The notes under the pieces are model-generated. The model was given only the letters and a program-made list of their open reading frames with translations. It made no database searches and was not told the DNA's origin. Source: Planctomycetota bacterium (GTDB taxonomy: Bacteria > Planctomycetota > B15-G4 > JADJEK01). Taken from it: a stretch of DNA of 64,000 nt. Of this stretch, positions 56 through 60,811 are shown piece by piece (the first letter of the stretch is position 1; every line of letters begins with the position of its first letter). Location of the stretch: assembly GCA_044225365.1 (NCBI GenBank), contig JBGAIQ010000002.1, positions 116,451 to 180,450 of the forward strand, in the 5' to 3' direction. Both the position numbers and the translations under genes were made by a program.

Positions 56-3000
56 TCAGTCGATGTAGAGGAACTCGTTCAGATTCATGATCGTGAGCGC
101 GAGCGCGGCCATGGCGTGCTGTGCGCTGTCCACGCGCGGGAGCGCCGCCTCGATCGTCGTTTTGCCGGAGGACATTGCGAGTCGCTCGAGCGTGATCCCA
201 CTGCCGTAGGTCTTGATCCCGACGCGTCCGCTCCGCGTGGCCGGCGTTCCGCCGTCGTTTCCCTCGAGGGAGATCGGAGGCTGACCTTCCTGCGAGATCA
301 CGGCGTGCACCTTGGCGCCCGCGAGACTCACGACGAGCTCGACCGGAACGAGTGTGCGGATCGCCGCCGCTCGTCGCGCGAGTTCCGTCGCGACGCCGTT
401 GTCGTGCGACAGCAGTATGAGGGCGCCCGGCGAACTCGCGCTCGGCGGTTCGATGCGGACCTCGATCCCGGCAGCGACGTCGCCGTCCACCTTGCCGCGT
501 ACGAGCAACCCGCAGTACGGCGAGTCCTCGTGCATTTCGAAACGGGCGGCGACCTCGCCGTCGACGAGTTCGTGATCCTTCCACAGCGCGCACGGACCTT
601 CGAGGCGATCGACCTCGTACGTCACGTTGTAGTCGTTGCCGAATCGGCCCTTCAGCACTTCGAACGTGTCGGCCGGTGCGCGCAGGATGCGATCGCCCGC
701 GAGGATCGCGAGGAATCCGCGTTCGAGCCGCGGGGGGACGAGTGACTCGATCACGGTCGATGGCGCGCGCGTCGCGACGGCCGCCGTCTCACGCTCCACG
801 AAAGCTCGCGCCGCGGTGAGTTCGCTTGGAGTCGGCTTGCGCGAGAGAGCCCGTTCGAAGACGAGTTCGATCGCGCGGGACGTGTCGCCCTTCGCATCGG
901 CGAGCACGCGGGAGGCGAACGCTTCGGACTGGCGGCCCGCGAAGTCGCCATTCAAGAGTTGCAGCGCTTGCGTCGGGACGGTCGTCACCGCGCGTCGTCC
1001 TTCGGGGAGCGCGGAGTTCGGACAGTCGAAGGTCTCGAGCAGGGGCGTGAGCAGGTTGCGCTTCACGAACGCGTAGAGCGAGCGGCGCTGCGTCTCCGCC
1101 GCGGGCGAGATCCTCATTCCTTCGCCCGGCCGCGACAGTCCGGCGAGCGCTTCGCGGGGCAAGGGCTCGAAGAAGCTCGGGCCGCCGCGAGTCGTCACGA
1201 GACTGCCGCTCGCCGCGAGGATCGAATCGCGCAGCGTCTCCGCCTCGAGGCGATGGCGATTCTGGCGCCACAGCAGTTGATTGCCGGGATCGACGAGGCT
1301 CGCTCGCTTCGCGACGGCATCGTCGACGGTCGAATCCTGACGATACGTGGACGAGAGCAGGATCTCGCGATGCAGCCACTTCAGGCTCTCACCGTGCTTC
1401 ACGAACTCGCTCGCGAGATGATCGAGGAGTTCGGGATTCGTGGGGGGCGCGCCGGCCTTGCCGAAGTCGTTCGGCGTCGGGACGATTCCCTCGCCGAAAT
1501 GATGCTGCCACACGCGATTCACGATCACGCGGGCGGTGAGCGGATTCGAGGAGTTCGCGATCCACTCGGCGAGCACGCGGCGGCGACCGCTCGATTCGGC
1601 GTGCGCGGAGCGGGTGATCTTGGAGGGCATCGCCGCGTCGTCGCTCGGCGCGAGCGCCCGCGGGAAGTGCGGCGCGACCTCTTCAGCGGGTGACGAGGCC
1701 TGGCCGCGAACGAGCAGATGCGTGACGGGCGGGGGAGTCGTGTTCTCGCGGGCGCAGAGCGCCCAGTCGAGATGACCCTGGAACGACTCGCGAATCGTGA
1801 GCCGCTCGCGTTGGAGGCCGAGCAATTGGATCGCGCGAGGATGGTCCTTCGAATCGAGGAGATTGAGCGCGCGCTGTTCGTCGATGCCGCTCTTGACCGC
1901 ATCGATGATCTCGCGCTGTTTCGCGTTGCGGTCCTTCTCCGGGGTGTCCCACGCGTCCTTCAATCGCTTCGCCGTCTTCGCCCGCTCCTCGATCACGAGC
2001 GTCCGCGCTCGTTCGACGAGGTCGGCGGCCTCGCTCTCGATCGCTTTCTTGCGCTCCTCGCGTTCGGCATTCCACTTCTTCATCGCCGCGGGATCGGAGC
2101 TCAGCATCGCGAGCGTCGGCGAGTCGGGCGCGAATTTGCCATCGTCGTAGCGCCGGAGGTTGCGGAGGAACGCGAGCAGTCCGTAGTAGTCGGTCTGCGG
2201 GATCGGATCGAACTTGTGATCGTGACAACGCGCGCATCCGATCGTCGTCCCGAGGAAGCCTTCGCCGATCGTGCGCACCATGTCGTCGAGTTCGTCGAAC
2301 TCGGCTTGGTCCATGTCGTCCGGCTCGCTGTCCCACGGGCCAAGGCGGTAGATCCCGGTCGCCACGATCGACTCTTTCGTCACCGCGTCGAGTTCGTCGC
2401 CCGCGAGCTGCTCGAGCACGAAGCGATCCCACGGCTTGTCCTGATTGAACGAGTCGACGACGTAGTCGCGATACCGCCAGGCGAAGGGCTTCTCCTGATC
2501 GCGTTCGTACCCCGAGGTCTCGGCATACCGCACCACGTCGAGCCAATGCCGCGCCCAGCGCTCGCCGTACTCCGGTCGCGAGAGGAGATCGTCGACGAGG
2601 CGCGCGTAGGCGTCGGGCGCCGGATCCAGAACGAAGCGATCGATCTCCTCTGCCGAGGGCGGCAGACCGATGAGGTCGAAGTAGACGCGACGCGCGAGCG
2701 TCGCCTTTGCCGCCGGCTCTGCCAGCATGAGCCCCTTCGCTTCGAGCTTGGCGAGGACGAAGGCGTCGAGCGGCTTCACGACGCGATCTTCGGCCTTCAC
2801 GGTTGGAACGGCCGGCGCCACGACCGGGCGGTATGCCCACCATTCGCGGCCCTTCGCGATGTCGATCTCCGATTCGCTCGACGTGTTGGATGCGGTGTTC
2901 GAAGCGAGTGCCGTCGGCCACGGTGCGCCCAGTTCGATCCATTGTTCGATCACTGCGATCTCGTCGGCCGCGAGCTGCTGCTTCGGCGGCATCTCGAGCG

Positions 3001-3325
3001 ACTCGTCGGTCCACTTCAGCGCCTTCACGAGCAGGCTCTTCGCCGGTTCGAACGGGACGACGACCGCTCCGGAATCGCCACCCTTCTTCAGAGAATCGGC
3101 ATCGGCGAATCGCAATCCGCCCTTCGGCCGCGCGACGTTCGGGCCGTGACACTTGAAGCAATGCGTGTCGAGGAGTGGGAGCACGCTCTTCGTGAACAAG
3201 GCTTCGCCGGTGTCGTCCGTCGCGCGCGGGCCGCAAAGCGCGACCGATGCAACGCCCCCCGCGGCGAGAGCGAATGTCGAGAGGGCGCTCCGCGCGATGG
3301 CGGACCGAATCGAACGAGGGGGCAT
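56..3325 (-). CDS. Planctomycete-type PSCyt/PSD1 (DUF1549/DUF1553) cytochrome-c-domain protein
   Basis: There is a 1,130-aa ORF. Trimmed to the Met at 3325 it gives MPPRS followed by a hydrophobic signal peptide. A CFKCHGP motif (CxxCH heme-binding site) lies near the N-terminus. The length and composition match the family that is abundant in Planctomycetes. Confidence 0.8.
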   Translation of the reverse strand: MPPRSIRSAIARSALSTFALAAGGVASVALCGPRATDDTGEALFTKSVLPLLDTHCFKCHGPNVARPKGGLRFADADSLKKGGDSGAVVVPFEPAKSLLVKALKWTDESLEMPPKQQLAADEIAVIEQWIELGAPWPTALASNTASNTSSESEIDIAKGREWWAYRPVVAPAVPTVKAEDRVVKPLDAFVLAKLEAKGLMLAEPAAKATLARRVYFDLIGLPPSAEEIDRFVLDPAPDAYARLVDDLLSRPEYGERWARHWLDVVRYAETSGYERDQEKPFAWRYRDYVVDSFNQDKPWDRFVLEQLAGDELDAVTKESIVATGIYRLGPWDSEPDDMDQAEFDELDDMVRTIGEGFLGTTIGCARCHDHKFDPIPQTDYYGLLAFLRNLRRYDDGKFAPDSPTLAMLSSDPAAMKKWNAEREERKKAIESEAADLVERARTLVIEERAKTAKRLKDAWDTPEKDRNAKQREIIDAVKSGIDEQRALNLLDSKDHPRAIQLLGLQRERLTIRESFQGHLDWALCARENTTPPPVTHLLVRGQASSPAEEVAPHFPRALAPSDDAAMPSKITRSAHAESSGRRRVLAEWIANSSNPLTARVIVNRVWQHHFGEGIVPTPNDFGKAGAPPTNPELLDHLASEFVKHGESLKWLHREILLSSTYRQDSTVDDAVAKRASLVDPGNQLLWRQNRHRLEAETLRDSILAASGSLVTTRGGPSFFEPLPREALAGLSRPGEGMRISPAAETQRRSLYAFVKRNLLTPLLETFDCPNSALPEGRRAVTTVPTQALQLLNGDFAGRQSEAFASRVLADAKGDTSRAIELVFERALSRKPTPSELTAARAFVERETAAVATRAPSTVIESLVPPRLERGFLAILAGDRILRAPADTFEVLKGRFGNDYNVTYEVDRLEGPCALWKDHELVDGEVAARFEMHEDSPYCGLLVRGKVDGDVAAGIEVRIEPPSASSPGALILLSHDNGVATELARRAAAIRTLVPVELVVSLAGAKVHAVISQEGQPPISLEGNDGGTPATRSGRVGIKTYGSGITLERLAMSSGKTTIEAALPRVDSAQHAMAALALTIMNLNEFLYID

Positions 3326-3474
3326 GGATGGGAGCTTCACGAGTAAGGCGATGATAACTCGCGCCGCAATCTCCGGCAAAACCGCCCGGTCAGGATCCGT
3401 GGAGAAATCGAGCGAGCCGGTAGACTCCGTGGTCTCTCTCGACCGCATTTCGTGCGGGCGAACCGCCCGAGCCG

Positions 3475-4761
3475 ATGACCGTCACCCGACCCTTGACCCT
3501 GCCCACGCTTCCACCCTCGCTTCCATCCTCTTCGCTTCGAGTGGCGCTCCACCGAGCGTTCTTCCTCGCGAGTTTGGTCGTTGCGTGCGGAGGATGCGAG
3601 CGCTCGCAGGAGGAGTGGTACTCCGACCTTCGCGCGGACGATGCCTACGATCGACGCCTCGCCGTCGTCGCGCTCGCCCAGGGCGGGGCGCTCGGCGTGC
3701 GCGAAGCCGCGGGCGTGCTCGCGGCGAAGCGCGATCACGACAAGTTGGTCGCCATCTCAGCGGGGCGAGAGTGTCGCGACTACGCCCGCCGCGAGGCCTC
3801 CGTCTTCGTGAACGTCGTCCTCGCGACGGATGCCGAACTCGAAGGACGCGCGATCCCGGCGCGCGCGATCCGACTCGACGCTGCGGAGATCGTGATCGAG
3901 GAAGGGACGAAGACGGAATCGCAGGCGCTCTACGAAGCGATCGTCCGCAAGCCGCCGATCCTCGGCGCGGAGATCTTGGAGATCGCATCGAACACCTTCG
4001 CGCGGATGGGTCGACGCAGCCTTCTCGTGCTCGAACAGGCGATCGCTGCGCAACGTCCCGTAGAGCAGTTGCTCGTGTTCCGAGTGCTCGCGAGTTCACT
4101 GGGGCTCGATGACGCCGCGGAACAGCAAGCCGCTCTCGACTTCGTGAAGGCGCACGAGATCGCCTCGCAGTTCCCCAAGCTCTTCATCGCGCAGTCGTTC
4201 GCGAATCCCTCGCTCGCGAGCACGATCGGCATCGAGGCCTGCGGCGAATACGCGGTCGCGGTGCGGCCGGGTTACGTCGCGCGACTCGTCTCCGACTTCG
4301 CGAGCGGCGGGCCCGGGGGAAGCGACGTCTCGTTACGAGCGGGGGAATCGCTCGCGAGGCTCGGACCGCTCGCGGCGGCCTGCATCGCACCGCTGCTCGA
4401 GGACTCGAATCCGGCGATCGTGCGCGCCGCGATCCGCACCTTCGCTCGTCTCGAATCGGGGCCGGCGCGACTCGCCGCACTCGCCTCGCTCGACCCGCGC
4501 GCCGAGTCGGACAAGGAGGCCTTCCGCAGTCTGGCATCGGCGATGAAGGAAGCGGACGTCGACGAACTCTTGAAACTCAGCGGGGACCGCAACGCCGAGT
4601 CGAGGATGCGCGCCGCGATGATCTTCGCATCGCTCGCAATGGGAGCATTCGGCGGACGGCTCGAAGTCGCGATCGACCGGCTGGCGCATGATCCGAATGG
4701 CGAGGTCGCCGCGATCGCCCACACGGCGCCGAAGCGAGATCGCAGCAATGGCGGGAAGTGA
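3475..4761 (+). CDS. HEAT/armadillo-type repeat lipoprotein (hypothetical)
   Basis: The ORF has an ATG at 3475. A hydrophobic stretch ends in VVACGGC, which is lipobox-like. The rest consists of alpha-helical repeats rich in A, L and R. The third codon position is strongly GC-biased. Confidence 0.65.
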   Translation: MTVTRPLTLPTLPPSLPSSSLRVALHRAFFLASLVVACGGCERSQEEWYSDLRADDAYDRRLAVVALAQGGALGVREAAGVLAAKRDHDKLVAISAGRECRDYARREASVFVNVVLATDAELEGRAIPARAIRLDAAEIVIEEGTKTESQALYEAIVRKPPILGAEILEIASNTFARMGRRSLLVLEQAIAAQRPVEQLLVFRVLASSLGLDDAAEQQAALDFVKAHEIASQFPKLFIAQSFANPSLASTIGIEACGEYAVAVRPGYVARLVSDFASGGPGGSDVSLRAGESLARLGPLAAACIAPLLEDSNPAIVRAAIRTFARLESGPARLAALASLDPRAESDKEAFRSLASAMKEADVDELLKLSGDRNAESRMRAAMIFASLAMGAFGGRLEVAIDRLAHDPNGEVAAIAHTAPKRDRSNGGK

Positions 4762-4771
4762 ACGACCGCAC

Positions 4772-4879
4772 GGACCGCCGGGCCGGACCGGCATGGATAT
4801 GCGGACCGCCGGGCTCCGCCCGGCATCTTCTTGAAGGCGCCAGGCCCGTCTCCTTGGACCGCCGGGCTCTGCCCGGCAT
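4772..4879. repeat. Three tandem copies of a 23-24-bp mini-palindrome (GGACCGCCGGGC-N3-GCCCGGCAT) immediately after the stop codon
   Basis: Copies lie at 4772-4794, 4803-4826 and 4856-4879. Each contains the GCCGGGC/GCCCGGC inverted repeat. Confidence 0.7.
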
Positions 4880-4999
4880 CTCATGAAGTCTACGGGCCCA
4901 AGCCCCGGCGCTTCGTTCTCCGCAACGAGCCCAATGGGATCGATAGGAATAAGGTCGCTCTGCGTGCCGGTATTTGTCTCTTCTACACGTTGGTCTTGC

Positions 5000-5494
5000 T
5001 CAAGAGATCCACCACATGTGGTCCTCGGTCACGATCCAAACTCCACTCCGTCGCTCGACCGTATACGTGTTTCCCGATGCGCTCAACCCGCCCTCGAAAT
5101 ATCCGCCCTCGACCTCGACCTTGTCGTCACCGATCCATTTGATTTCTCCCACGTTGAAAGACAGGCCCTTTGCGCCATCTATCTTGTGATGAATGCGAGT
5201 GTCGAGGGGGGACTGCGCGCCTGCGGAGCCCGGCAACACACGCGGCGAGATGTCTTTGAATCTCGCGAGAAACTGCGGGGTCGGGTCTACCTTACCGCCG
5301 TCGATCGAGATGAAGTAGTATCGCACTTTATTCTGCGCCGCAGATGCGTTGTGCTCGAATTCGTAGCGGAAGACTGCTTCGCGGACGTCATCGACCTCGG
5401 CGCGTCGCCGTTCTTCCTGTCGCGCCTCCGGACTCATGCATGCGAACGCAAGGAAAGCGCAGGCCAGAAACGCGACAGCAGCGCGAACGGACAT
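5000..5494 (-). CDS. Small lipoprotein (hypothetical), within the lower-GC island
   Basis: The ATG at 5494 begins MSVRAAVAFLACAFLAFACMS, a signal peptide with a lipobox. The product is 164 aa. Local GC is clearly lower than in flanking DNA. Confidence 0.5.
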   Translation of the reverse strand: MSVRAAVAFLACAFLAFACMSPEARQEERRRAEVDDVREAVFRYEFEHNASAAQNKVRYYFISIDGGKVDPTPQFLARFKDISPRVLPGSAGAQSPLDTRIHHKIDGAKGLSFNVGEIKWIGDDKVEVEGGYFEGGLSASGNTYTVERRSGVWIVTEDHMWWIS

Positions 5495-6133
5495 GAGAGA
5501 TCCTTTCGATTGAGCGCACGGCGAACGCGGAGACAGAGAAGCGACTGAACGCGCTAAGGGTGTTACGTGGTCGCGGCCAAGACGGGTTCCAAGCGTTGAG
5601 CATCCTACCTCCCGTCCATCGTATTCTTCCGGCCGAGCACTGTGCTCCCCTCGGAGAAAGAGATGCGCCTTCGGGGCCGAGGCGGCGAGAAGGACGAGAT
5701 CGGCGACGTCGGTGCCGAGGATATCGACTGCGTGCCGGCGTCGGTGATCGTGCGCGAGTACGTGCGACCGCCGTACGCGAGCCGGATCGCCCCCCTCGAT
5801 CGCCCCGATTCGGCTGGGGGGCTGGGGGGCGACCGCGTAGACCATCCTCAGGGCGGCTCGCAACCGCTAGTAACCAACAGGGGACTGTTCGGATCCCATC
5901 CGACTCGGGGTGGGGCGGGCGTGACCACGAGCAGGGTGGATTCGCGTGATGGGCGTGGCCCGGCGGTACGCCGGGAACAGTCGCTCGAGCCGATGTTCGC
6001 CGTTGCTTCGATCCCGTCTCGCCTGATAAAAGCACAGTCCGAATGTGACTCCGCAATGAACTCGGCCTGCAAAATTCCCGCATTTGTGGCGGATGTCGAG
6101 CTTCTCTTTTCGAGCACCCGTAGGCAGCCGCCC

Positions 6134-7606
6134 ATGAACAACCGCGTCGTTCGCAGTTCGGTCTTCATCGCGTTCTTCACGACCGCCTTCGGTTCGTCTA
6201 TCGGCGTTGCTCCATCCGCCCACGCCCAGTCGATGAAAACTCGCGTTGGCAACATCGAACTCGAACGGGGTGTCCCAACCGAACAAAGCGCGCATGAGCT
6301 GTTCGACAGCATGGATTTCCAGCGTGCCTGCCAGGCGTATCTTTGGGCGCTGCCCGCTGTCGGGTTCGAGTATGTACTCCGTGAACAAAGGAATGAGCTC
6401 GGCGCAAGAAACGGGGACGTCGTCGTTTGCAAGGGCTACCGAGACGTGAGTCGGTTCCTCACGCCGAATGTCACCACGCCTTATATCATCGGCTTCATGG
6501 ATCTGGCGGAAAGCGGACCGATGATGCTGCAAGTTCCCGAAGGTGCGATCGCCGGATCGGCGATGGACTTCTGGCAGCGCCCAATCACCGACTTCGGCAT
6601 GACGGGTCCGGATCAGGGCAAAGGAGGGCTGTATCTCCTGGTCGGGCCGGGGCAGTCGCTGCCTTCGCAGTTGCCCCCGGCGGCAATCGTCGTTCGATCG
6701 CCGACGTTCGGCGTTGGCTTCTTCTACCGCGCGCTCGACACCGATCCGGCGAAGGCCGAAGCGATGGAAAAGGCCATCCGCACCTACCCGTGGTCGCAGC
6801 GTGACAATCCGCGCGAGACACAACACCTCAAGCCCAACGCGCCGCAGACAGCGACCTTGCCTCGTGGTATGGAGTACTGGGAACAGTTGGCTGCCGTGAT
6901 CAACCGCGAACCCGTGGATGACCGTGATCGGTTCTTCGTGGCGATGCTCAGACCGTTGGGTATCGAACGCGGAAAGGAATTCAAGCCAGACGAGCGGCAG
7001 CGCCAATTATTGAAGGAAGGTGCTCAGGTTGGCGAGTTGATGGCGATGGCGAATTCCTTCGACAAGCGATTCCCTGGTTCGCGGTATCAACCGAATGCTC
7101 ACTGGGATTACGTCATCATGGCGGATCCGGCGCAGGACCTTCCGGACTACAGCCAGCTCGATGAGCGCGGGGCCTACTTCTACGAAGCTGTTGCCCTGTC
7201 GAAGGGGATGGTCACGAAGACACCAGGGGTCGGTCAGGCTTATCTAGGAAGTTATCGCGACAAGAACGGGCACGCCTTCGATGGAGGACTGTCCTACCGG
7301 CTCCGCGTGCCACCGCATCCGCCCGCCAAGCAGTTCTGGTCGGTGACGGTCTATGACACGCAGACGCGCGGCATCATTCAGAACACGCAACAGATCGCGG
7401 ATCGTTCTTCCCGGCAGGATCTGGTCACGAATGCGGATGGATCCGTAGATATATACTTTGGGCCAACGGCGCCCGCGGGCCTCGAAAAGAACTGGATTCC
7501 CACCGTTCCCGGCGGATCGTGGTTCGCCTACTTTCGTCTCTACGCCCCGTTGGAGCCGTATTTCGACCGAACCTGGCCGCTTCCGGACATCGAACTCGTG
7601 AAATGA
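6134..7606 (+). CDS. Secreted DUF1254/DUF1214-family protein (hypothetical)
   Basis: The ATG at 6134 begins MNNRVVRSSVFIAFFTTAFGSSIGVAPSAHAQ, a signal peptide. The C-terminal half carries an FWSVTVYD-type motif that I recall as typical of DUF1214. This assignment is from memory, not a search. Confidence 0.6.
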   Translation: MNNRVVRSSVFIAFFTTAFGSSIGVAPSAHAQSMKTRVGNIELERGVPTEQSAHELFDSMDFQRACQAYLWALPAVGFEYVLREQRNELGARNGDVVVCKGYRDVSRFLTPNVTTPYIIGFMDLAESGPMMLQVPEGAIAGSAMDFWQRPITDFGMTGPDQGKGGLYLLVGPGQSLPSQLPPAAIVVRSPTFGVGFFYRALDTDPAKAEAMEKAIRTYPWSQRDNPRETQHLKPNAPQTATLPRGMEYWEQLAAVINREPVDDRDRFFVAMLRPLGIERGKEFKPDERQRQLLKEGAQVGELMAMANSFDKRFPGSRYQPNAHWDYVIMADPAQDLPDYSQLDERGAYFYEAVALSKGMVTKTPGVGQAYLGSYRDKNGHAFDGGLSYRLRVPPHPPAKQFWSVTVYDTQTRGIIQNTQQIADRSSRQDLVTNADGSVDIYFGPTAPAGLEKNWIPTVPGGSWFAYFRLYAPLEPYFDRTWPLPDIELVK

Positions 7607-7631
7607 CACCCGTATTATTCTCATACAAACC

Positions 7632-8948
7632 ATGAAGACTATCTACCTCCGATTCGTTGCCGCATTCGCGTTGATCCTGACGGCGTTTCCTGCGGCCCGC
7701 GCGCAGGTTCCTGACAAGCAGACCTTGACCGACGCCTACGTCTATTTGCTCGGCCGCGCCATCGCCATCCGGCAGGAGCAGACGGACCTCAAGGAGCCGG
7801 GCATCGACTACAACGTCATCAAGTACAACCCAGCGGGGTCCGCGGATTTCGTGAACCCGAATCTCGACGTCGCCTACCTCGAAGCGTGGATCGCCGTCGA
7901 CGACAACACGCCGGCGGTGCTCGAGGTGCCGGAAGTGAAGGGGCGCTATTACACGGCGCAGATTCTCGACGAGTGGGGCGAGGTCATCACGAACATCAAC
8001 GAGCGCAATTATCCGACGCATCCGTTCGGTAGGTTTGCATTCGTCGCGCCCGGCTCCACGGCAACCGTCCCTTCGGACGCCGCCCGCATCGAATTGCACT
8101 CGCGCAAGGCCAAGTTGCTCGGGCGAGTGGAGCTGAAGACGGACCCTACCGGCGCGATGGCCTTGCAGAAGCAGTTCAAACTCACACCCCTCGGCAAGCC
8201 GGTCATCCAGCCCGCCGCTCCGATGGCGTCGTTCGGGAACGAGAAACTGATTGGGGTGGAGCTGTTCGACAACGTCGATGCAGTGTTGGCCAGCGCGCTG
8301 GATGTGTCGCCGATCGCAGCTCAGATGCAGGCCAAGGCACGAGACATCGGCCGGCAAGTCAAGGATGCTGGGAAGCGCCAGGCGATCGACAAGATGATCA
8401 AGGATGACGTAGTCCCTCAGTTCCTCCGGTACGCCGTCACGAAATCGGGTGCGTTCCAGAACAACTGGCTCGCGACACTAGGCACAGGCAACTATGGCGC
8501 CGACTACTGGAAGCGCAGTTCGGCGAACCTGGTCGGACTCTGGGCGAACGCCAACGACGAAGTGATCTACTTCGTCGCCACGCGGGATGCCGACGGTCAA
8601 CCGCTCAATGGCGCGAACGACTATGTGCTCGAGTTCTCTCCCGCGAACCGGCCAGACGCCGTGGTGAATGCCTACTGGTCGGTGATCCTCGTGGATGTGC
8701 CCGACTACCGGGTCGTGAAGAATCCGCTGAACCGTTTCAACTTCAACAGCGATTCAGGCCTGAAGAGCGAGGCCGACGGTTCGCTGAAGATCCTCTTTTC
8801 TTCGAAGCCGAATTCGGCTGTGCCGGAATCCAACTGGTTGCCGTCCGCGCCCGCCAAGGGATTCTCCCTCACGCTGCGAACCTACGTCCCCAAAGACCTC
8901 GTCAAGCGTGGTGAGTGGTTCCCCCCGGCAATCAAACGGCTGAACTGA
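7632..8948 (+). CDS. Secreted DUF1254/DUF1214-family protein (paralogue of 6134..7606)
   Basis: The ATG at 7632 begins with signal peptide MKTIYLRFVAAFALILTAFPAARAQ. It has the same overall architecture as the preceding gene, including a YWSVILVD motif, and sits in tandem with it. Confidence 0.6.
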   Translation: MKTIYLRFVAAFALILTAFPAARAQVPDKQTLTDAYVYLLGRAIAIRQEQTDLKEPGIDYNVIKYNPAGSADFVNPNLDVAYLEAWIAVDDNTPAVLEVPEVKGRYYTAQILDEWGEVITNINERNYPTHPFGRFAFVAPGSTATVPSDAARIELHSRKAKLLGRVELKTDPTGAMALQKQFKLTPLGKPVIQPAAPMASFGNEKLIGVELFDNVDAVLASALDVSPIAAQMQAKARDIGRQVKDAGKRQAIDKMIKDDVVPQFLRYAVTKSGAFQNNWLATLGTGNYGADYWKRSSANLVGLWANANDEVIYFVATRDADGQPLNGANDYVLEFSPANRPDAVVNAYWSVILVDVPDYRVVKNPLNRFNFNSDSGLKSEADGSLKILFSSKPNSAVPESNWLPSAPAKGFSLTLRTYVPKDLVKRGEWFPPAIKRLN

Positions 8949-9085
8949 GGGGCGTGAACGCCGCGTCAATGCGGAAGGACTGGAACGCGTTACCCAGCCG
9001 TGCGCCACGACGCTGGGCGCTCTTCGGCATCCGTCACGCCGAGGATAGTCGCTTCGGATCGATGTCGGACTCGACGTCATAAGAC

Positions 9086-9370
9086 CTACGCAGTCGATGG
9101 ATTTCCCGAAACGGTGACTTTCACGGTGGTCGCTCCGCGTAGTGCCTTCGTCCCTCCCCGGGGCGACATGCTTTCCACCCCGTGCGGCGTGAGTATCGCG
9201 ATGTCGGTCTCGTGGCCGATCCGGAATAGGACGTCGCGGAAGTAGATCTTCGGATCGAGCCCGACCGCTGGCCAGTTCATTCGACTCGCGGCGAACGGTC
9301 GAAGCCCGCACTCGGCGCGGTTGTTATCGAACCCGGTCCGACCGTCGTCGAGGAAGGTCTGTAGCGCCGC
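9086..9370 (-). pseudogene. IS66-family transposase C-terminal remnant
   Basis: The minus-strand translation reads FLDDGRTGFDNNRAECGLRPFAASRMNWPAVGLDPKIYFRDVLFRIGHETDIAILTPHG. This matches the conserved IS66 TnpC C-terminus (FLDDGR.xxDNNxAER...R.N..F.GS...LDPxxYLRDVLxRI...I..LLPW). It is only about 95 codons long and is followed by unrelated sequence. Confidence 0.55.
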
Positions 9371-9451
9371 GCATTGATTCCGTCTGTAGCGGCGGGAAAG
9401 ACCCTTTACTGCTGGTGCCCTGGAGCGGGCACGAGACCGATCCCGAGAAAG

Positions 9452-9893
9452 GACGCGCGATCCCGGCGCGCGCGATCCGACTCGACGCTGCGGAGATCGT
9501 CATCGAGGAAGGGACGAAGACGGATTCGCAGGCGCTCTACGAAGCGATCGTCCGCAAGCCGCCGATCCTCGGCGCGGAGACCTTGGAGATCGCATCGAAC
9601 ACCTTCGCTCGGATGGGTCGACGCAGTCCTCTCGTGCTCGAACAGGCGCTCGCCGCGCAGCGCCCTGTGGAGCAGTTGCTCGTCTTCCGAGTGCTCGCGA
9701 GTTCGCTGGGGCTCGATGACGCCGCGGAACAGCAAGCCGCTCGATGATCTTCGCGTCGCTCGCCGTGGGAGCGTTCGGAGGACGGCTCGAAGTCGCGATC
9801 GACCGGCTGGCACACGATCCGAACCCGGAGGTCGCCGCGATCGCCCACACGGCGCCGAAGCGAGATCGCAGCAACGGCGGGAAGTGAACGACC
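9452..9893 (+). pseudogene. Truncated, internally deleted duplicate of the HEAT-repeat lipoprotein gene (3475..4761)
   Basis: 9452-9740 is about 95 % identical to 3843-4130. 9742-9893 is near-identical to 4615-4764. The N-terminal 368 bp and an internal 484 bp are missing, and the reading frame switches at the junction. The identical post-stop sequence (CGACCGCACGGACCGCCGGGCCGGACCGGCAT) follows both copies. Confidence 0.75.
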
Positions 9894-9958
9894 GCACGGA
9901 CCGCCGGGCCGGACCGGCATCTTACTAATGATGCCGGGCGGAGCCCGGCGGTCCGAGA
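9892..9958. repeat. Long inverted repeat (about 24-bp stem, 9-nt loop) built from two copies of the GGACCGCCGGGC...GGCAT mini-palindrome
   Basis: GGACCGCCGGGCCGGACCGGCAT, then CTTACTAAT, then GATGCCGGGCGGAGCCCGGCGGTCC. The second arm is the reverse complement of the repeat at 4803-4826. Confidence 0.65.
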
Positions 9959-9965
9959 GGAGCGC

Positions 9966-11582
9966 TCAGCGCTTTTCGAGCCAGGGGCGGATGAAGTTCG
10001 CGAGGGCCTCGCCCACGATCTCGTTGCCGCGGCGGTTGAGGTGGGTATCGCGCAGGGAGTAGACGTGATGTTTGCCGTCGGGGGGTGACTTCGGGGGAGG
10101 CGCGCTTCGCAACAACGGGAGGAGGTCGAGGTAGGGGATGTTCGCCGCGTCGAAGAACTCTTTGAGCAAGCGTTGGGGCCGATCGCGATCGAGCGCGAAT
10201 CCAGCGGCGCTCTTCTCGACCGAGTTCCACAAGTCGTCCTCGACCTGGAATTCGTCCGGGATGATCACGCAGACGAGGGGGATTCGCCCGGCTCCCTGCT
10301 GCATCGCCCGCAGGGCGGCGAACATGGCGTCGGGAGGGGGCGAGTCGACTCGACATGCGCCGAGCGCGCGAATCACTTCGGTATTCAGGAAACGGCCGGG
10401 CGTCATCGTCTCCCGTTCGAGCGCGGGGTCGTCGAGCCACGGGAAGTGGCGGGCGAGTGCAACGGGATCGTTCGAATCACCCGCCGGAATCGCATGCTCG
10501 CCCGCGATCTCACCCGCGGCACGACCGAGCTCTCCCGACTCGGCATCGGCGATCCACAGCCGGCGCGGCACCTGGTAGAGCAGAAGATTCTCGGTGTCGA
10601 GCCAGTCGCCGCCGAACGACGAACCCGCGAATCGCCCCGCGGCGTCGAGGAAGTCGTTACCGACGAACAGCGACACGACGATGAGGTCGGGAGCGAGAGC
10701 GGAGACGTCGGATTGCAGCAGGTCGGCGTATTCGAACGGTCCGATGCCGGGCAGTCCGACGTTGCACACCTCGGCGCCGGTCTCTCGCTCGCACACGGTT
10801 CCGAAATGGAAGTAGTGCGGCACGATCCCGACGACGAACGAATCGCCGATCAGCGCGACGCGGGGCTTGTCCGCCGCACCCTTCTGCCGCGGCTGCCATT
10901 CGTCGTCGTAGAACCCGCCCGAGTTGCAACGGAAACCGAAGCGATTCGTCCCCGGCGCATAGCGGGCCGCCGCGACGGCGTCGCTCACGCTTCCCGAGGC
11001 GCGTGAGAAGATCGGCGACGGCTTCCAATGCGCGAAGATGCGCAGCGTGATCTCGCAGCAGAGGGCGAGCAGGCAGATCTGGAACAGGGCGAACCCGAAG
11101 CCGCTCCGAAGTCGTCGCGGCAGGGTCCGCTCGAGCCATGGCGAAAGGAGTCGCCACGAAACGAAGGCGAGCGATGCCGTCGCCAGGATCAAGAGCCCTT
11201 CCATGCGCCGATACGGTTGGACGAGCACGATCCCGGCGATCGACGACCCGATGCAGCAGACGAACGCCGCGCGCAGCAGCCCGCCGATGGATGTTGAGAC
11301 GGTCCCGCGCACGCGCCGCATTGCGACCCCGCCCGCCGCGATGCCCGCAGCCAGGATTGCGAGGAGCGCGACGTATCGCAGGTCGTAGATCGCGTACATC
11401 GGCAGTCGCCGCTGGAGCAGGTGTACCGTGACGTACACCAGATCCGCGAGCGCCGCAACGAGAAGGGCCGTCTCGGCCCAGTGCGCGAGCGAACGCGTGC
11501 CGCGCTCCCTCGGCGCGAGGGAATCGCTCACGTCATCGCTTTCTCGTTTCATCGCGGAAGGCTGCATCGCACTCGACATCAT
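9966..11582 (-). CDS. Membrane-anchored SGNH/GDSL-type hydrolase (AlgX/AlgJ-like architecture)
   Basis: The N-terminal third has several hydrophobic helices. The C-terminal domain has ALIGDSFVVG (GDS(L) block I) and RDTHLNRRGNEIV (the DxxH block). Confidence 0.65.
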   Translation of the reverse strand: MMSSAMQPSAMKRESDDVSDSLAPRERGTRSLAHWAETALLVAALADLVYVTVHLLQRRLPMYAIYDLRYVALLAILAAGIAAGGVAMRRVRGTVSTSIGGLLRAAFVCCIGSSIAGIVLVQPYRRMEGLLILATASLAFVSWRLLSPWLERTLPRRLRSGFGFALFQICLLALCCEITLRIFAHWKPSPIFSRASGSVSDAVAAARYAPGTNRFGFRCNSGGFYDDEWQPRQKGAADKPRVALIGDSFVVGIVPHYFHFGTVCERETGAEVCNVGLPGIGPFEYADLLQSDVSALAPDLIVVSLFVGNDFLDAAGRFAGSSFGGDWLDTENLLLYQVPRRLWIADAESGELGRAAGEIAGEHAIPAGDSNDPVALARHFPWLDDPALERETMTPGRFLNTEVIRALGACRVDSPPPDAMFAALRAMQQGAGRIPLVCVIIPDEFQVEDDLWNSVEKSAAGFALDRDRPQRLLKEFFDAANIPYLDLLPLLRSAPPPKSPPDGKHHVYSLRDTHLNRRGNEIVGEALANFIRPWLEKR

Positions 11583-38101: not shown

Positions 38102-39340
38102 ATGATCCTGCAGCTCCTGAAGCCGCTTTTCGGACTCTTCGTTGCCGCGACGCCGAGCCTTGCGCCGAATCATCTGCTCGTGACTTCGTTCACGAGCGGA
38201 AGCCTGCTCGACATCGCTCCCGGAAACACCATCTCCGGTTCGTTCGATCTCGCCGCGCTCGGAATCGCGCCGATGGGCGTCGCTGTCGGCCCGAACGGCA
38301 AGGTCTACGTCTCGGACAACAACGGCAATCGCGTGGTCGTACTCGACGCGAGCGGCGCGATCGTCTCCGAGATCGGCGCCGGCTCGGGTCTCGTCACTCC
38401 CCGCGGTCTCGCGTTCGGACCCGATGGCGAGTTGTACGTCAGCACTGCCGCGGGGATCCCGCTCTACGTGTTCAACGCGGCGGGCGAGAAGGTCGCGGAG
38501 TACGGGAAGTCCGAAGGCGTGCTGCGAGCCGAGGGACTCGAGGTGGGCATCGATGGCCACATCTTCGTCGCGTCGCAGCGCGATGACGACATCTACGAGT
38601 TCGACAGTTCGGGAGTGCTCGTTCGTCAGATCGGCAAGGACGCGGGCCTCGACGATCCGATCGGGATCGCCTTTGGCCGCGACGGGCTGATGTACGTGGC
38701 GTCCGAGAATCACAACGAGATCGTGGTGTTCGGACCGAGCGGCGATGTGGTGGGGAGCTTCGGTAAGGCCGAAGGAGTGGAGATGCCGATCGGACTCACG
38801 ATCGGCCCCGACAATCGCGTGTACGTCGCGTGTTTCGACCAGAATCTGGTTCACGTCTTCGACGTGAACGGCGCGGTCGCGACGAGTCACACGACGATCG
38901 TGGTTCCCGGCAATCCGGCGTTCCTCGCATTCGTACCGTTCCGACTTCCCATCGAGCTCGACGGCGATCTCGCGTTCACGGGAGCGTTCGAGAAGCACCA
39001 CATCGAAACGGCGACGCTCGTCTACTCGCCGGGCGTCGGCCCGGCTTCGATCGTATTGAAGGACGTCGATACCTCGACGGATCTCGCCACCACGTTCAGC
39101 GCGATTCAGCTCGTCTTCCACGGTCAGCACGCGTCGGTCGATGCGACGACGACGAAGCGTCTCTTCATGGGCACGCAGATTCCTCGCCTCGCGATGAATC
39201 GGGGCGCGGCCTCGCTCTCCCTGCGCGTGACGACGCAGCAAGGGGACTTCGGTTTCCCGACCGTGAAGAAGGTCGAAGGCACGCTCGAGCGCGCGCGCGC
39301 CGGGACGATCTTCCGGGGCGATATCCGGCTCAAGGGATGA
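38102..39340 (+). CDS. NHL-repeat beta-propeller protein (secreted)
   Basis: The ATG at 38102 begins MILQLLKPLFGLFVAATPSLA. NHL-like units are repeated: GVAVGPNGKVYVSDNNGNRVVVLD, PRGLAFGPDGELYVS, PIGIAFGRDGLMYVA and PIGLTIGPDNRVYVA. Confidence 0.7.
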   Translation: MILQLLKPLFGLFVAATPSLAPNHLLVTSFTSGSLLDIAPGNTISGSFDLAALGIAPMGVAVGPNGKVYVSDNNGNRVVVLDASGAIVSEIGAGSGLVTPRGLAFGPDGELYVSTAAGIPLYVFNAAGEKVAEYGKSEGVLRAEGLEVGIDGHIFVASQRDDDIYEFDSSGVLVRQIGKDAGLDDPIGIAFGRDGLMYVASENHNEIVVFGPSGDVVGSFGKAEGVEMPIGLTIGPDNRVYVACFDQNLVHVFDVNGAVATSHTTIVVPGNPAFLAFVPFRLPIELDGDLAFTGAFEKHHIETATLVYSPGVGPASIVLKDVDTSTDLATTFSAIQLVFHGQHASVDATTTKRLFMGTQIPRLAMNRGAASLSLRVTTQQGDFGFPTVKKVEGTLERARAGTIFRGDIRLKG

Positions 39341-46083: not shown

Positions 46084-46194
46084 GTCGGAACTCTACATCG
46101 ACCGTTCTGAATTTTCAATAAAACATGAAAGTAGAAAAACGATCGAGCCGAAGTCGGCCTCGTCCTCATGCGCAGTCGCGCCGCCCGCTTCTGC

Positions 46195-46440
46195 GATCAC
46201 GCGTGCTCTTGTCGGGACCGATCCGGAGTTCTCCACGGAGGTTCACGGAGGTAAGAGGAGGCCCACGGAGGCCAGGAGGTATGAAAGGGGGCGGTCTCGG
46301 CGGTCCTGACGAATGCGGGCGCCAACGAGATCGCGTCGGGTTCGGCGGACGGCCCCTTTTGAACTTCTGCTCTTCTCCGACCTCCGTGGTCCTCCTCTGA
46401 CCTCCGTGGTCCTCCGTGTGAAATGAACGACTCCGTCCAC
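46195..46440. repeat. Solo copy, in inverted orientation, of the 250-275-bp palindrome-rich repeat family that forms the array at 59885-60745
   Basis: CGGGACCGATCCGGAGTTCTCCACGGAGGTTCACGGAGGTAAGAGGAGGCCCACGGAGG is the reverse complement of CCTCCGTGGTCCTCCTCTTACCTCCGTGAACCTCCGTGGCAAACTCCGGATCGGTCCC from the array. It also contains GACCTCCGTGGTCCTCCTCTGACCTCCGTGG. Confidence 0.7.
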
Positions 46441-46510
46441 ACGGACAGCCGCCCATTGCCCCTTGCATCAGCGCCTGCGGTCGTTTGGATTACGCGCGGA
46501 GGCAGCTTTC

Positions 46511-59884: not shown

Positions 59885-60745
59885 GGGCGATCTCCTTGGC
59901 GCCCACATTCGTGAGGACCGCCGAGCCGGCCCCCGACCGCATCCGTGAACGCAGAAGCATGCGTCGTGGCTGTCCGTGACGGCGAAGTCGATCGTTTCAC
60001 ACGGAGGGCCACGGAGGTCAGAGGAGGGCCACGGAGGTCGGAGAAGAACGGATCTTTCAAAGGGGGCCGTCCGCCGCCCGCGCTGCGATCTCCTTCGCGC
60101 CCGCCTTCGTGAGGACCGCCGAGCCGGCCCCCTTTCCTACTTCCTGACCTCCGTGAACCTCCGTGGCAAACTCCGGATCGATCCCCGCCAGTGCGTGCGG
60201 GAATGCGCAAGCGAGCGTTCCGGCTGTCCGTGACGGCGAAGTCGATCGTTTCACACGGAGGGCCACGGAGGTCAGAGGAGGGCCACGGAGGTCGGAGAAG
60301 AGCAGAAGTTCAAAAGGGGCCGTCCGCTTCTCGCGACGCGATCTCCTTCGCGCCCGACTTCGTGAGGACCGCCGAGCCGGCCCCTTTTCCTACTTCCTGA
60401 CCTCCGTGGTCCGCCTCTTACCTCCGTGAACCTCCGTGGCAAACTCCGGATCGGTCCCCGCCAGTCCGTGCGGGAATGCGCAAACGAGCGTTCCGGCTGT
60501 CCGTGTGGACGAAGTCGATCGTTTCACACGGAGGGCCACGGAGGTCAGAGGAGGGCCACGGAGGTCGGAGAAGAACGGATCTTTCAAAGGGGCCGTCCGC
60601 CGCCCGCGCCGTGATCTCCTTCGCGCCCGCGTTCGTGAGGACCGCCGAGCCGGCCCCCTTTCCTACTTCCTGACCTCCGTGGTCCTCCTCTTACCTCCGT
60701 GAACCTCCGTGGCAAACTCCGGATCGGTCCCTGCGGATGCGCACG
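59885..60745. repeat. Tandem array (about 3.3 copies) of a 250-275-bp unit rich in internal inverted repeats
   Basis: The block CCGTG(ACGGC/TGGAC)GAAGTCGATCGTTTCACACGGAGGGCCACGGAGGTCAGAGGAGGGCCACGGAGGTCGGAGAAG recurs at about 59973, 60222 and 60497. The block GATCTCCTTCGCGCCCGCCTTCGTGAGGACCGCCGAGCCGGCCCCCTTTCCTACTTCCTGACCTCCGTG recurs at about 59888, 60088, 60340 and 60613. Units differ by a 21-bp indel. They are internally self-complementary (CACGGAGGTCAG pairs with CTGACCTCCGTG). Confidence 0.8.
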
Positions 60746-60811
60746 CGAATGCAGAAGCAGGCGTCGCGCAGCGGAGAAGAGAGGGTCGTTCGCTAGAAGA
60801 GCTTGCCGCGA

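Follow-up and report, generated by a model that had tools for sequence, protein, structure and literature searches.

Short G+C-rich hairpins at two loci in a 64,000-nucleotide stretch of planctomycete DNA (contig JBGAIQ010000002.1, positions 116,451 to 180,450; this whole stretch is hereafter the window) are probably repetitive extragenic palindromes (REPs), single at one locus and paired at the other in the manner of a REP doublet forming hairpin (REPIN). Each hairpin carries an unpaired GGACC tag at its 5' foot. The same tagged hairpin occurs as inverted doublets in other genomes and metagenomes, where it repeatedly flanks genes for a REP-associated tyrosine transposase (RAYT). We therefore take up in turn the units in the window, the wider family, its link to RAYT, and the reasons for and against assigning the window units to that family. 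Positions are those of the window, position 1 being its first letter, unless another contig is named.

Five tagged hairpins at two loci

The 24-mer GGACCGCCGGGC-TCY-GCCCGGCAT occurs exactly at 4803-4826 and 4856-4879, both on the forward strand, and with Y allowed in the loop there are three exact matches in the 64-kb window, against 0.01 expected from shuffled sequence. An earlier note, drawn up from the sequence alone, had described three tandem mini-hairpins at 4772-4879, and all three copies are indeed present there (Table 1). Its statement that each of them folds as GCCGGGC/GCCCGGC holds for copies 2 and 3, in both of which a 3-nt loop closes a perfect 7-bp stem of G+C pairs (-15.2 kcal/mol; z -2.3 and -3.0 against shuffles). 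It does not hold for copy 1, a weaker variant that is one C shorter than the consensus and has only the stem GCCGG/CCGGC (-11 kcal/mol; z -1.1), nor does the 146-nt segment holding all three direct copies fold better than its shuffles (z -0.76). An outer 7-bp stem, GGCCCGT/ACGGGCC, encloses copy 3. The cluster had also been placed immediately after a stop codon; it does lie downstream of one, with copy 1 beginning 10 nt past the TGA (4759-4761) of gene 3475-4761.

The two spacers within the cluster, 8 and 29 nt long, show no significant similarity to each other (p 0.2-0.6), and the spacer comparison gave significance neither to a tandem duplication of a larger unit nor to decayed inverted partners as the source of the direct triplet. 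All three copies are direct, with no alternation of orientation, and the description of the cluster as resembling bacterial interspersed mosaic elements (BIMEs) has to be given up.

Within the window the motif is not unique to this cluster. The second locus, about 5 kb away, brings the number of units to five in 64 kb and consists of two units in inverted orientation (copies 4 and 5), which together fold into one long hairpin of -47.7 kcal/mol, against -23.7 kcal/mol for shuffles (z -7.7). Copies 1 and 4, one base shorter than the others, have only a 5-bp stem, and copies 2, 3 and 5 fold as GGACC, a 7-bp G+C stem, a 3-nt loop and AU. GGACC stands directly 5' of the stem, unpaired, in all five copies. 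The pair at 9898-9954 is an intact REPIN-type doublet, and the cluster at 4772-4879, made up of three singlets in direct orientation, is atypical.

A family of tag-outward doublets in other genomes

A first scan of GTDB genomes, made with the loose pattern N{3,6}CCGGCAT, returned about 85 single, unrelated matches in G+C-rich genomes. About 15 matches of the GTDB scan had the form GGACCGCCGGGC-N4-GCCCGGCAT, several of them with an inverted partner 10-47 nt downstream. This core with a 4-nt loop was present in metagenome-assembled genomes (MAGs) labeled Planctomycetota (L013), Alphaproteobacteria (L022, L056, L095 and L099), Hyphomonadaceae (L024) and Verrucomicrobiota (L034), and in the 4.4-Mb genome OW818686.1 (L039); a metagenome contig similar to L013, L189, carries the 4-nt-loop family as well. 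The taxonomy of the MAGs is that of their record titles, and Pfam found no domain diagnostic of a phylum in L013, L189 or L034. A metagenome scan that allowed loops of 3-5 nt found at least 120 contigs.

Altogether the family core occupies more than 50 distinct loci, nearly always as inverted doublets with the tags outward. Among the matches listed (120 contigs), 46 of 50 adjacent pairs were inverted with their GGACC tags outward, none had the tags inward, and four were direct. The spacers of the doublets on these contigs measure 16-89 nt and often hold one or two extra small hairpins, and the doublets are units of about 100 nt with 24-nt inverted ends and variable interiors. When the listed contigs were combined with the seven family-bearing genome loci, 51 of the resulting 52 doublets had distinct flanks and spacers. 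Many different loci were found within single samples, such as Ga0105048 and Ga0193752.

As to position, 69% of 98 sites (among the matches listed) are intergenic, compared with 15% for random placement. Sites between convergent genes (22) are enriched and those between divergent genes (8) depleted, with a further 28 between co-directional genes. In an alignment of 114 sequences GGA is invariant and CC at least 90% conserved, a conservation that is partly imposed by the search pattern. Compensatory variants, GCCAGGC/GCCTGGC and GCCGGCC/GGCCGGC, preserve the stem, and 99.5% of cells are paired.

Members differ in what precedes the tag. Those labeled as belonging to the Planctomycetes-Verrucomicrobia-Chlamydiae (PVC) group (L013 at 3265-3373 and 5772-5831, L189, and L034) have a CCCTG extension 5' of GGACC, and the compensatory stem GCCAGGC/GCCTGGC occurs in L013 and L189. 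In the alphaproteobacterial members the flanks are CCG, CTG or TCT. The CCCTG-extended members may form a PVC subfamily apart from the alphaproteobacterial ones.

RAYT genes lie between inverted units

We screened the window and the related loci retrieved for RAYT genes by motif and by tblastn. In L121, L147, L167 and L191 an open reading frame (ORF) of about 180 aa is bracketed each time by the element in inverted orientation, and in L167 by two complete doublets. The gene for P0041 in OW818686.1 (L225-L227; gene 3001-3573) is a fifth, independent case: units at 2968-2990(+) and 3544-3566(-) adjoin it, and the further doublet of this genome (L039) is 2.2 Mb from the P0041 locus.

The ORFs share the sequence plan MGDFxSINWRSRGYLPHFDA ... 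PNHVHVV ... YVExNPVxAGL, with the HUH (HVH) and YVxxNP motifs, and their products match Pfam Y1_Tnp above the gathering score (E 1e-8). The NCBIfam model for REP-associated tyrosine transposases, NF047646, scored 82.4 and 79.2 bits against a cut-off of 80, whereas the NCBIfam IS200 model reached 17 bits against a cut-off of 55. The sole PDB match of an ORF product is Escherichia coli TnpA_REP (4ER8, E 1.4e-5). Homologues number in the thousands; they bear the JGI name "REP element-mobilizing transposase RayT" and NCBI assigns them to Hyphomonadaceae and Reyranella. RAYTs are typically single-copy genes (PMC5581495), and five of them among loci picked only for carrying the repeat is far above chance. 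The earlier note's suggestion of a dispersed family of REP-like palindromes outside genes is supported both by the inverted doublet 5 kb from the first cluster and by the core flanking RAYT genes elsewhere.

In L121, L147 and L191 the RAYT ORF continues into the downstream REP, and the repeat encodes the C-terminal ...AGQAPGGP.

Are the window hairpins members of the family?

The window units are identical to the family at all 20 specified positions, comprising the tag, both halves of the stem and the A; a single base in the loop sets them apart, the loop being 3 nt long in the window and 4 nt in the family. When a covariance model built from non-window members only was run on the window, it recovered copy 3 with 34.2 bits (E 1.3e-6), copy 5 with 33.6 bits (E 1.7e-6), copy 2 with 33.4 bits (E 2e-6) and copy 4 with 19.9 bits (E 0.006), and it gave no further degenerate copies in the window.

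Several points weigh against the assignment. The public copies were fished with the window motif, so their agreement in sequence with the window is partly circular. A separate metagenome scan for the exact 3-nt-loop form gave no match, and the only other 3-nt-loop occurrences are at 3208-3229 of L202 and 1342-1363 of L224, two contigs that are identical there. Covariation in the family does support the stem but is thin, amounting to 4 cells in 2 pairs. The screen found no RAYT gene in the 64-kb window, whose two loci are separated by only 5 kb. A direct triplet is unusual among REPs, and the tag GGAC(C), which reads GGTCC on the opposite strand, differs from both GTAG and CGTC. Evidence that is independent of the search motif comes from the tag-outward architecture of the doublets, from the kind of genomic position that they occupy, and from the RAYT linkage of the family. 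Taken together, we consider it likely that the window hairpins are REP/REPIN-type elements of the RAYT-linked GGAC(C) family.

Two other hairpin matches were set aside. The 3-nt-loop match in L202 and L224, GGACCGCCGGGCTCTGCCCGGC, lies inside a 90-aa phage or prophage ORF (…HLAGQSPAVQGAV…) and was rejected as a REP, being a coincidental coding match. A perfect hairpin in the window at 39028-39045, GCCGGGC-GTCG-GCCCGGC, has no GGACC tag, scores 14.5 bits (E 0.13) and falls within predicted coding sequence; it is probably a chance occurrence.

Alternative explanations

Could these be ordinary gene-end hairpins, that is, intrinsic or bidirectional terminators that are alike through local duplication only and are not mobile? 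Both loci do lie between convergent genes, a segmental duplication joins copy 1 to copy 4 (see below), and copy 2 has a T-rich tail (ATCTTCTTGA) and was flagged as terminator-like. However, copy 2 is the only one of the five units with such a tail, and the region has 5 terminator-like sites where shuffles give 6.2. The conserved part takes in the non-palindromic GGACC tag and the AT tail, both needless for a terminator. Local duplication does not account for copy 5, which is outside the duplicated segment yet identical to copy 2, and the spacers between copies are unrelated at the similarity values given above. Moreover, the tagged hairpin flanks RAYT genes elsewhere. We regard this explanation as unlikely. 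A terminator or RNA-stabilizing role is compatible with REP identity and is no replacement for it.

A less probable alternative is that the window repeat is private and unrelated, and that it and the RAYT-linked family are coincidental G+C-rich palindromes. The yield of unrelated matches from the loose GTDB pattern, the difference in loop length, and the chance occurrence of the 3-nt-loop form in coding sequence all speak for coincidence. Coincidence would, however, have to extend to every one of the 20 specified positions, the unpaired tag included, to the tag-outward arrangement that the window doublet shares with the family, and to the like location between convergent genes; L013, labeled Planctomycetota, and the similar contig L189 moreover carry the 4-nt-loop family. 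On these grounds we think coincidence improbable.

The doublets have the outline of miniature inverted-repeat transposable elements (MITEs), with the 24-nt units as terminal inverted repeats of variable units of about 100 nt, and as MITEs they would have been moved by a DDE transposase. No target-site duplication, taken as a direct flank repeat of at least 3 bp, was present in any of the 52 doublets. The flanks tend instead to inverted symmetry, extending the inverted repeat by at least 3 complementary bp in 11 of 52 doublets as compared with 4.8% of controls. Between inverted units the one kind of gene found encodes a Y1/HUH RAYT and not a DDE transposase, and the window holds singlets and a direct array. 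A MITE origin is accordingly very improbable.

Equally remote is a structured regulatory RNA (a small RNA or 3'-untranslated-region element) kept for its RNA function and not spread as DNA: the hairpins are predicted to be stable as RNA and the family lies preferentially downstream of genes, but neither the window nor 15 related loci matched any Rfam family at gathering score, the spacers and flanks of different loci show no relationship, the units occur in both orientations beside unrelated genes, and covariation is minimal. All four of these explanations are less well supported than REP identity.

Relation to the 273-bp repeats

The earlier note had also seen the core of the hairpins in much larger repeats of the window and had proposed a single family of different sizes. 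These repeats are built on a 273-bp unit, of which about 3.2 tandem copies lie at 59885-60770, between convergent genes, and one inverted copy at 46154-46451, 13.7 kb away. The shared stretch is present at the sites that were named, as GGACCGCCGAGCCGGCCC at 59915, 60113, 60366 and 60639 and as GGACCGCCGAGA at 46295-46306(-). GGACCGCCGAGCCGGCCC agrees with the variant copy 1 only, at 16 of 18 nt, and 0.48 matches with up to three mismatches are expected in the window. Since the four matches in the tandem array are copies of one repeat unit, they represent one event, and the match is suggestive at most.

Other measures separate the two repeats. On the 273-bp repeat sites the covariance model gave 10.6-11 bits (E about 1), against 33-34 bits for true copies, and the 4-bp hairpin of the 273-bp repeat has a z of 0.0 against shuffles. 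The stretch is without the REP hairpin, the CCGGCAT end and an inverted partner. It sits in a different, imperfect palindrome of about 200 nt, one per 273-bp unit, each arm of which holds the word CACGGAGG three times, at offsets 0, 10 and 30; the whole window has 24 such words where 3 are expected. The 273-bp unit has no Rfam family at gathering score and no long ORF; at the E-value threshold its Rfam matches are generic long-hairpin miRNA models, far below their cut-offs. No copy of the unit was present in any related locus retrieved. Membership of the 273-bp repeats in the REP family is not established, and the single family of different sizes is not supported by the comparison; a captured or degenerate tag in the 273-bp repeat is possible.

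Neighboring genes and a segmental duplication

The window has a G+C content of about 65%. A neighboring 1130-aa protein has PSCyt1, PSCyt2 and PSD1 domains, and the best of its named homologues reach at most 52% identity and belong to Planctomycetota MAGs. These features point to a PVC bacterium, in all likelihood a planctomycete. The features around the two REP loci are collected in Table 1.

Table 1. Candidate REP units and adjoining genes in the window
Feature	Position	Strand	Description
Putative REP copy 1	4772-4794	+	GGACCGCCGGGCCGGACCGGCAT, 23 nt; GGACC tag, 5-bp stem, 6-nt loop
Putative REP copy 2	4803-4826	+	GGACCGCCGGGCTCCGCCCGGCAT; GGACC tag, GCCGGGC-TCC-GCCCGGC, AT
Putative REP copy 3	4856-4879	+	GGACCGCCGGGCTCTGCCCGGCAT; canonical unit, TCT loop
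Putative REP copy 4	9898-9920	+	Identical to copy 1; left arm of doublet
Putative REP copy 5	9931-9954	-	Identical to copy 2; right arm of doublet; outside segmental duplication
REPIN-like inverted doublet	9898-9954	.	GGACC tags outward, 10-nt spacer, 57 nt
Upstream gene	3475-4761	+	428 aa, weakly HEAT-like; 3' end adjoins REP cluster
Convergent downstream gene	5000-5494	-	164 aa, no Pfam match; stop 120 nt past copy 3; called on Logan contig L102 at 198-692(-)
Pseudogene copy of 3' part of 3475-4761	9445-9887	+	Frameshifted, internally deleted; copy 4 at its end
Convergent gene, SGNH/AlgX-like	9966-11582	-	Stop 11 nt past doublet

The gene upstream of the first cluster, 3475-4761, has a coding-like G+C content of 0.71, 0.51 and 0.81 at codon positions 1, 2 and 3. 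Its product matches HEAT_2 and HEAT, in all cases below the Pfam cut-offs, and a search of 5.8 billion proteins gave it no homologue at E <= 1e-5. The gene is thus an orphan, though one with a local pseudogene copy. Between the two REP loci lie two adjacent paralogous DUF1254/DUF1214 genes (5642-7606 and 7632-8948).

The pseudogene belongs to a segmental duplication in which 3842-4135 corresponds to 9449-9742 at 95% identity and 4616-4794 to 9742-9920 (179 nt) at 93% identity; an internal deletion of about 480 bp and a frameshift have made the duplicated segment a pseudogene. The last 23 nt of the second block are copy 1. Because the duplication joins copies 1 and 4, these count as one event, and only copies 2, 3 and 5 are separate placements. 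The endpoint of the duplication is the exact last base of REP copy 1/4, which suggests a REP-associated rearrangement, of a kind familiar for enterobacterial REPs. REPs in this genome may drive or transduce local duplications.

A Logan contig, L102 (SRR28480385), corresponds to window positions 4803-9478. Its first base is the first base of copy 2, and it stops 30 nt inside the duplicated segment. These ends at repeats are as expected where an assembly graph with k = 31 (k assumed) branches, and they weakly hint that the 30-mer starting at 4803 is present elsewhere in the SRR28480385 metagenome.

Proposed mode of spread and its implications

A family unit consists of an unpaired 5' tag GGAC(C), a 7-bp stem GCCGGGC/GCCCGGC, a loop of 3-4 nt and, last, a short tail, A(T). 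The scheme that we propose follows what is established for E. coli TnpA_REP (PMC3479197) and for REPINs in Pseudomonas (PMC3116915, PMC3337134). In it, single units or inverted pairs would fold into a hairpin on single-stranded DNA. A single-copy HUH/Y1 RAYT would read the foot of the hairpin together with the tag, cut, and rejoin, and copies would in this way be dispersed into intergenic DNA without target-site duplications. The inverted pairs would be the replicative unit and the singlets remnants. By the same analogy this planctomycete would have a RAYT of its own, which may have moved the copies in the window. Successive insertions beside an existing unit would be the simplest reading of the direct triplet, which is speculation.

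REPs elsewhere are retained at the ends of genes, and once transcribed they function as hairpins in the RNA (PMC3733652). Copies in the window would likewise lie in the 3' untranslated regions of convergent genes, and their RNA hairpins would most likely block 3' exonucleases, read-through transcription, or both.

The distribution of the family raises a broader question. The RAYT was found in Alphaproteobacteria, and the PVC members comprise this planctomycete, L013 and L034; it is conceivable, if rather doubtful, that one REP-RAYT system with an identical 20-nt core crossed phyla by horizontal transfer. Such sharing would contradict the prevailing view that REPIN-RAYT systems are vertically inherited (bioRxiv 10.1101/2022.05.22.493013). 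If true, it would offer a clean case for studying horizontal movement of REPIN-RAYT systems and the reading of the tag by RAYT. What can be said more directly is that the same core is present in phyla as far apart as Alphaproteobacteria and Planctomycetota. A full-text search of one paper library did not find a GGAC(C)-tagged family common to a planctomycete and distant Alphaproteobacteria, and literature searches with the motif as text returned no relevant paper. The hairpins are of more modest use in annotation, as markers of gene ends, of likely assembly breakpoints and of the point where a segmental duplication joins.

Comparison with known systems

REPs and RAYT transposases are well known in Gammaproteobacteria, and REP copies per genome typically exceed 100. 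For PVC bacteria, the documentation of REPs or RAYTs that we found is in one comparative survey only (PMC3733652).

The E. coli REP/BIME system with TnpA_REP (4ER8) is alike in its short imperfect palindrome with a G+C stem and an unpaired, conserved 5' tag, in its extragenic position at gene ends, and in a cognate Y1/HUH transposase flanked by inverted units, which for the present family is seen in other genomes. The E. coli stem, GCCGGAT.../...ATCCGGC, resembles GCCGGGC/GCCCGGC. The tag is GTAG there, whereas it is GGAC(C) here, and the present unit is shorter (24 nt), with a loop of 3-4 nt. BIMEs, moreover, alternate REPs with linker motifs, in contrast to the direct cluster at 4772-4879, which has no BIME linker motifs.

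Closer in architecture are the REPINs of Pseudomonas fluorescens SBW25, in which two inverted REPs with a short spacer form one long hairpin, singlets are interpreted as remnants, and a single-copy RAYT is flanked by the repeats (Bertels and Rainey 2011, PMC3116915; PMC3337134). The window doublet at 9898-9954 and the 46 inverted pairs among 50 in the family follow the same plan. The sequence, the tag and the host phyla are different, and the family spacers vary from 10 to 89 nt and often include one or two small hairpins.

The comparative survey of the GTAG and CGTC superfamilies (Di Nocera et al. 2013, PMC3733652) describes REPs in which inverted dimers prevail and head-to-tail dimers are rare, which lie preferentially between convergent and unidirectional ORFs, and whose dimer spacers are 20-100 bp long and sometimes contain small stem-loops; both Alphaproteobacteria and the PVC group are among the hosts (PMC3733652). 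In size, stem-loop plan, a tag at one end, a short tail, dimer orientation and location, the GGAC(C) family is of this type. Its tag fits neither consensus, and "GGAC" is absent from PMC3733652. It departs further from the CGTC repeats, whose stems typically include A-T pairs where the present stems are pure G+C, and which do not flank a tyrosine transposase gene as the GGAC(C) family does. A REP family with a GGAC(C) tag, outside both superfamilies of that survey, is now tied to its transposase.

Finally, the IS200/IS605 elements share with this family a transposase of the Y1/HUH type, which works on subterminal hairpins in DNA without producing a target-site duplication, and the family RAYT matches Y1_Tnp. 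It is nevertheless the RAYT model that reaches its cut-off and the IS200 model that falls far below, and the repeats are far shorter than insertion sequences and contain no gene. REP-type repeats spread by a domesticated transposase, RAYT, are an ordinary class of element, to which the GGAC(C) family belongs.

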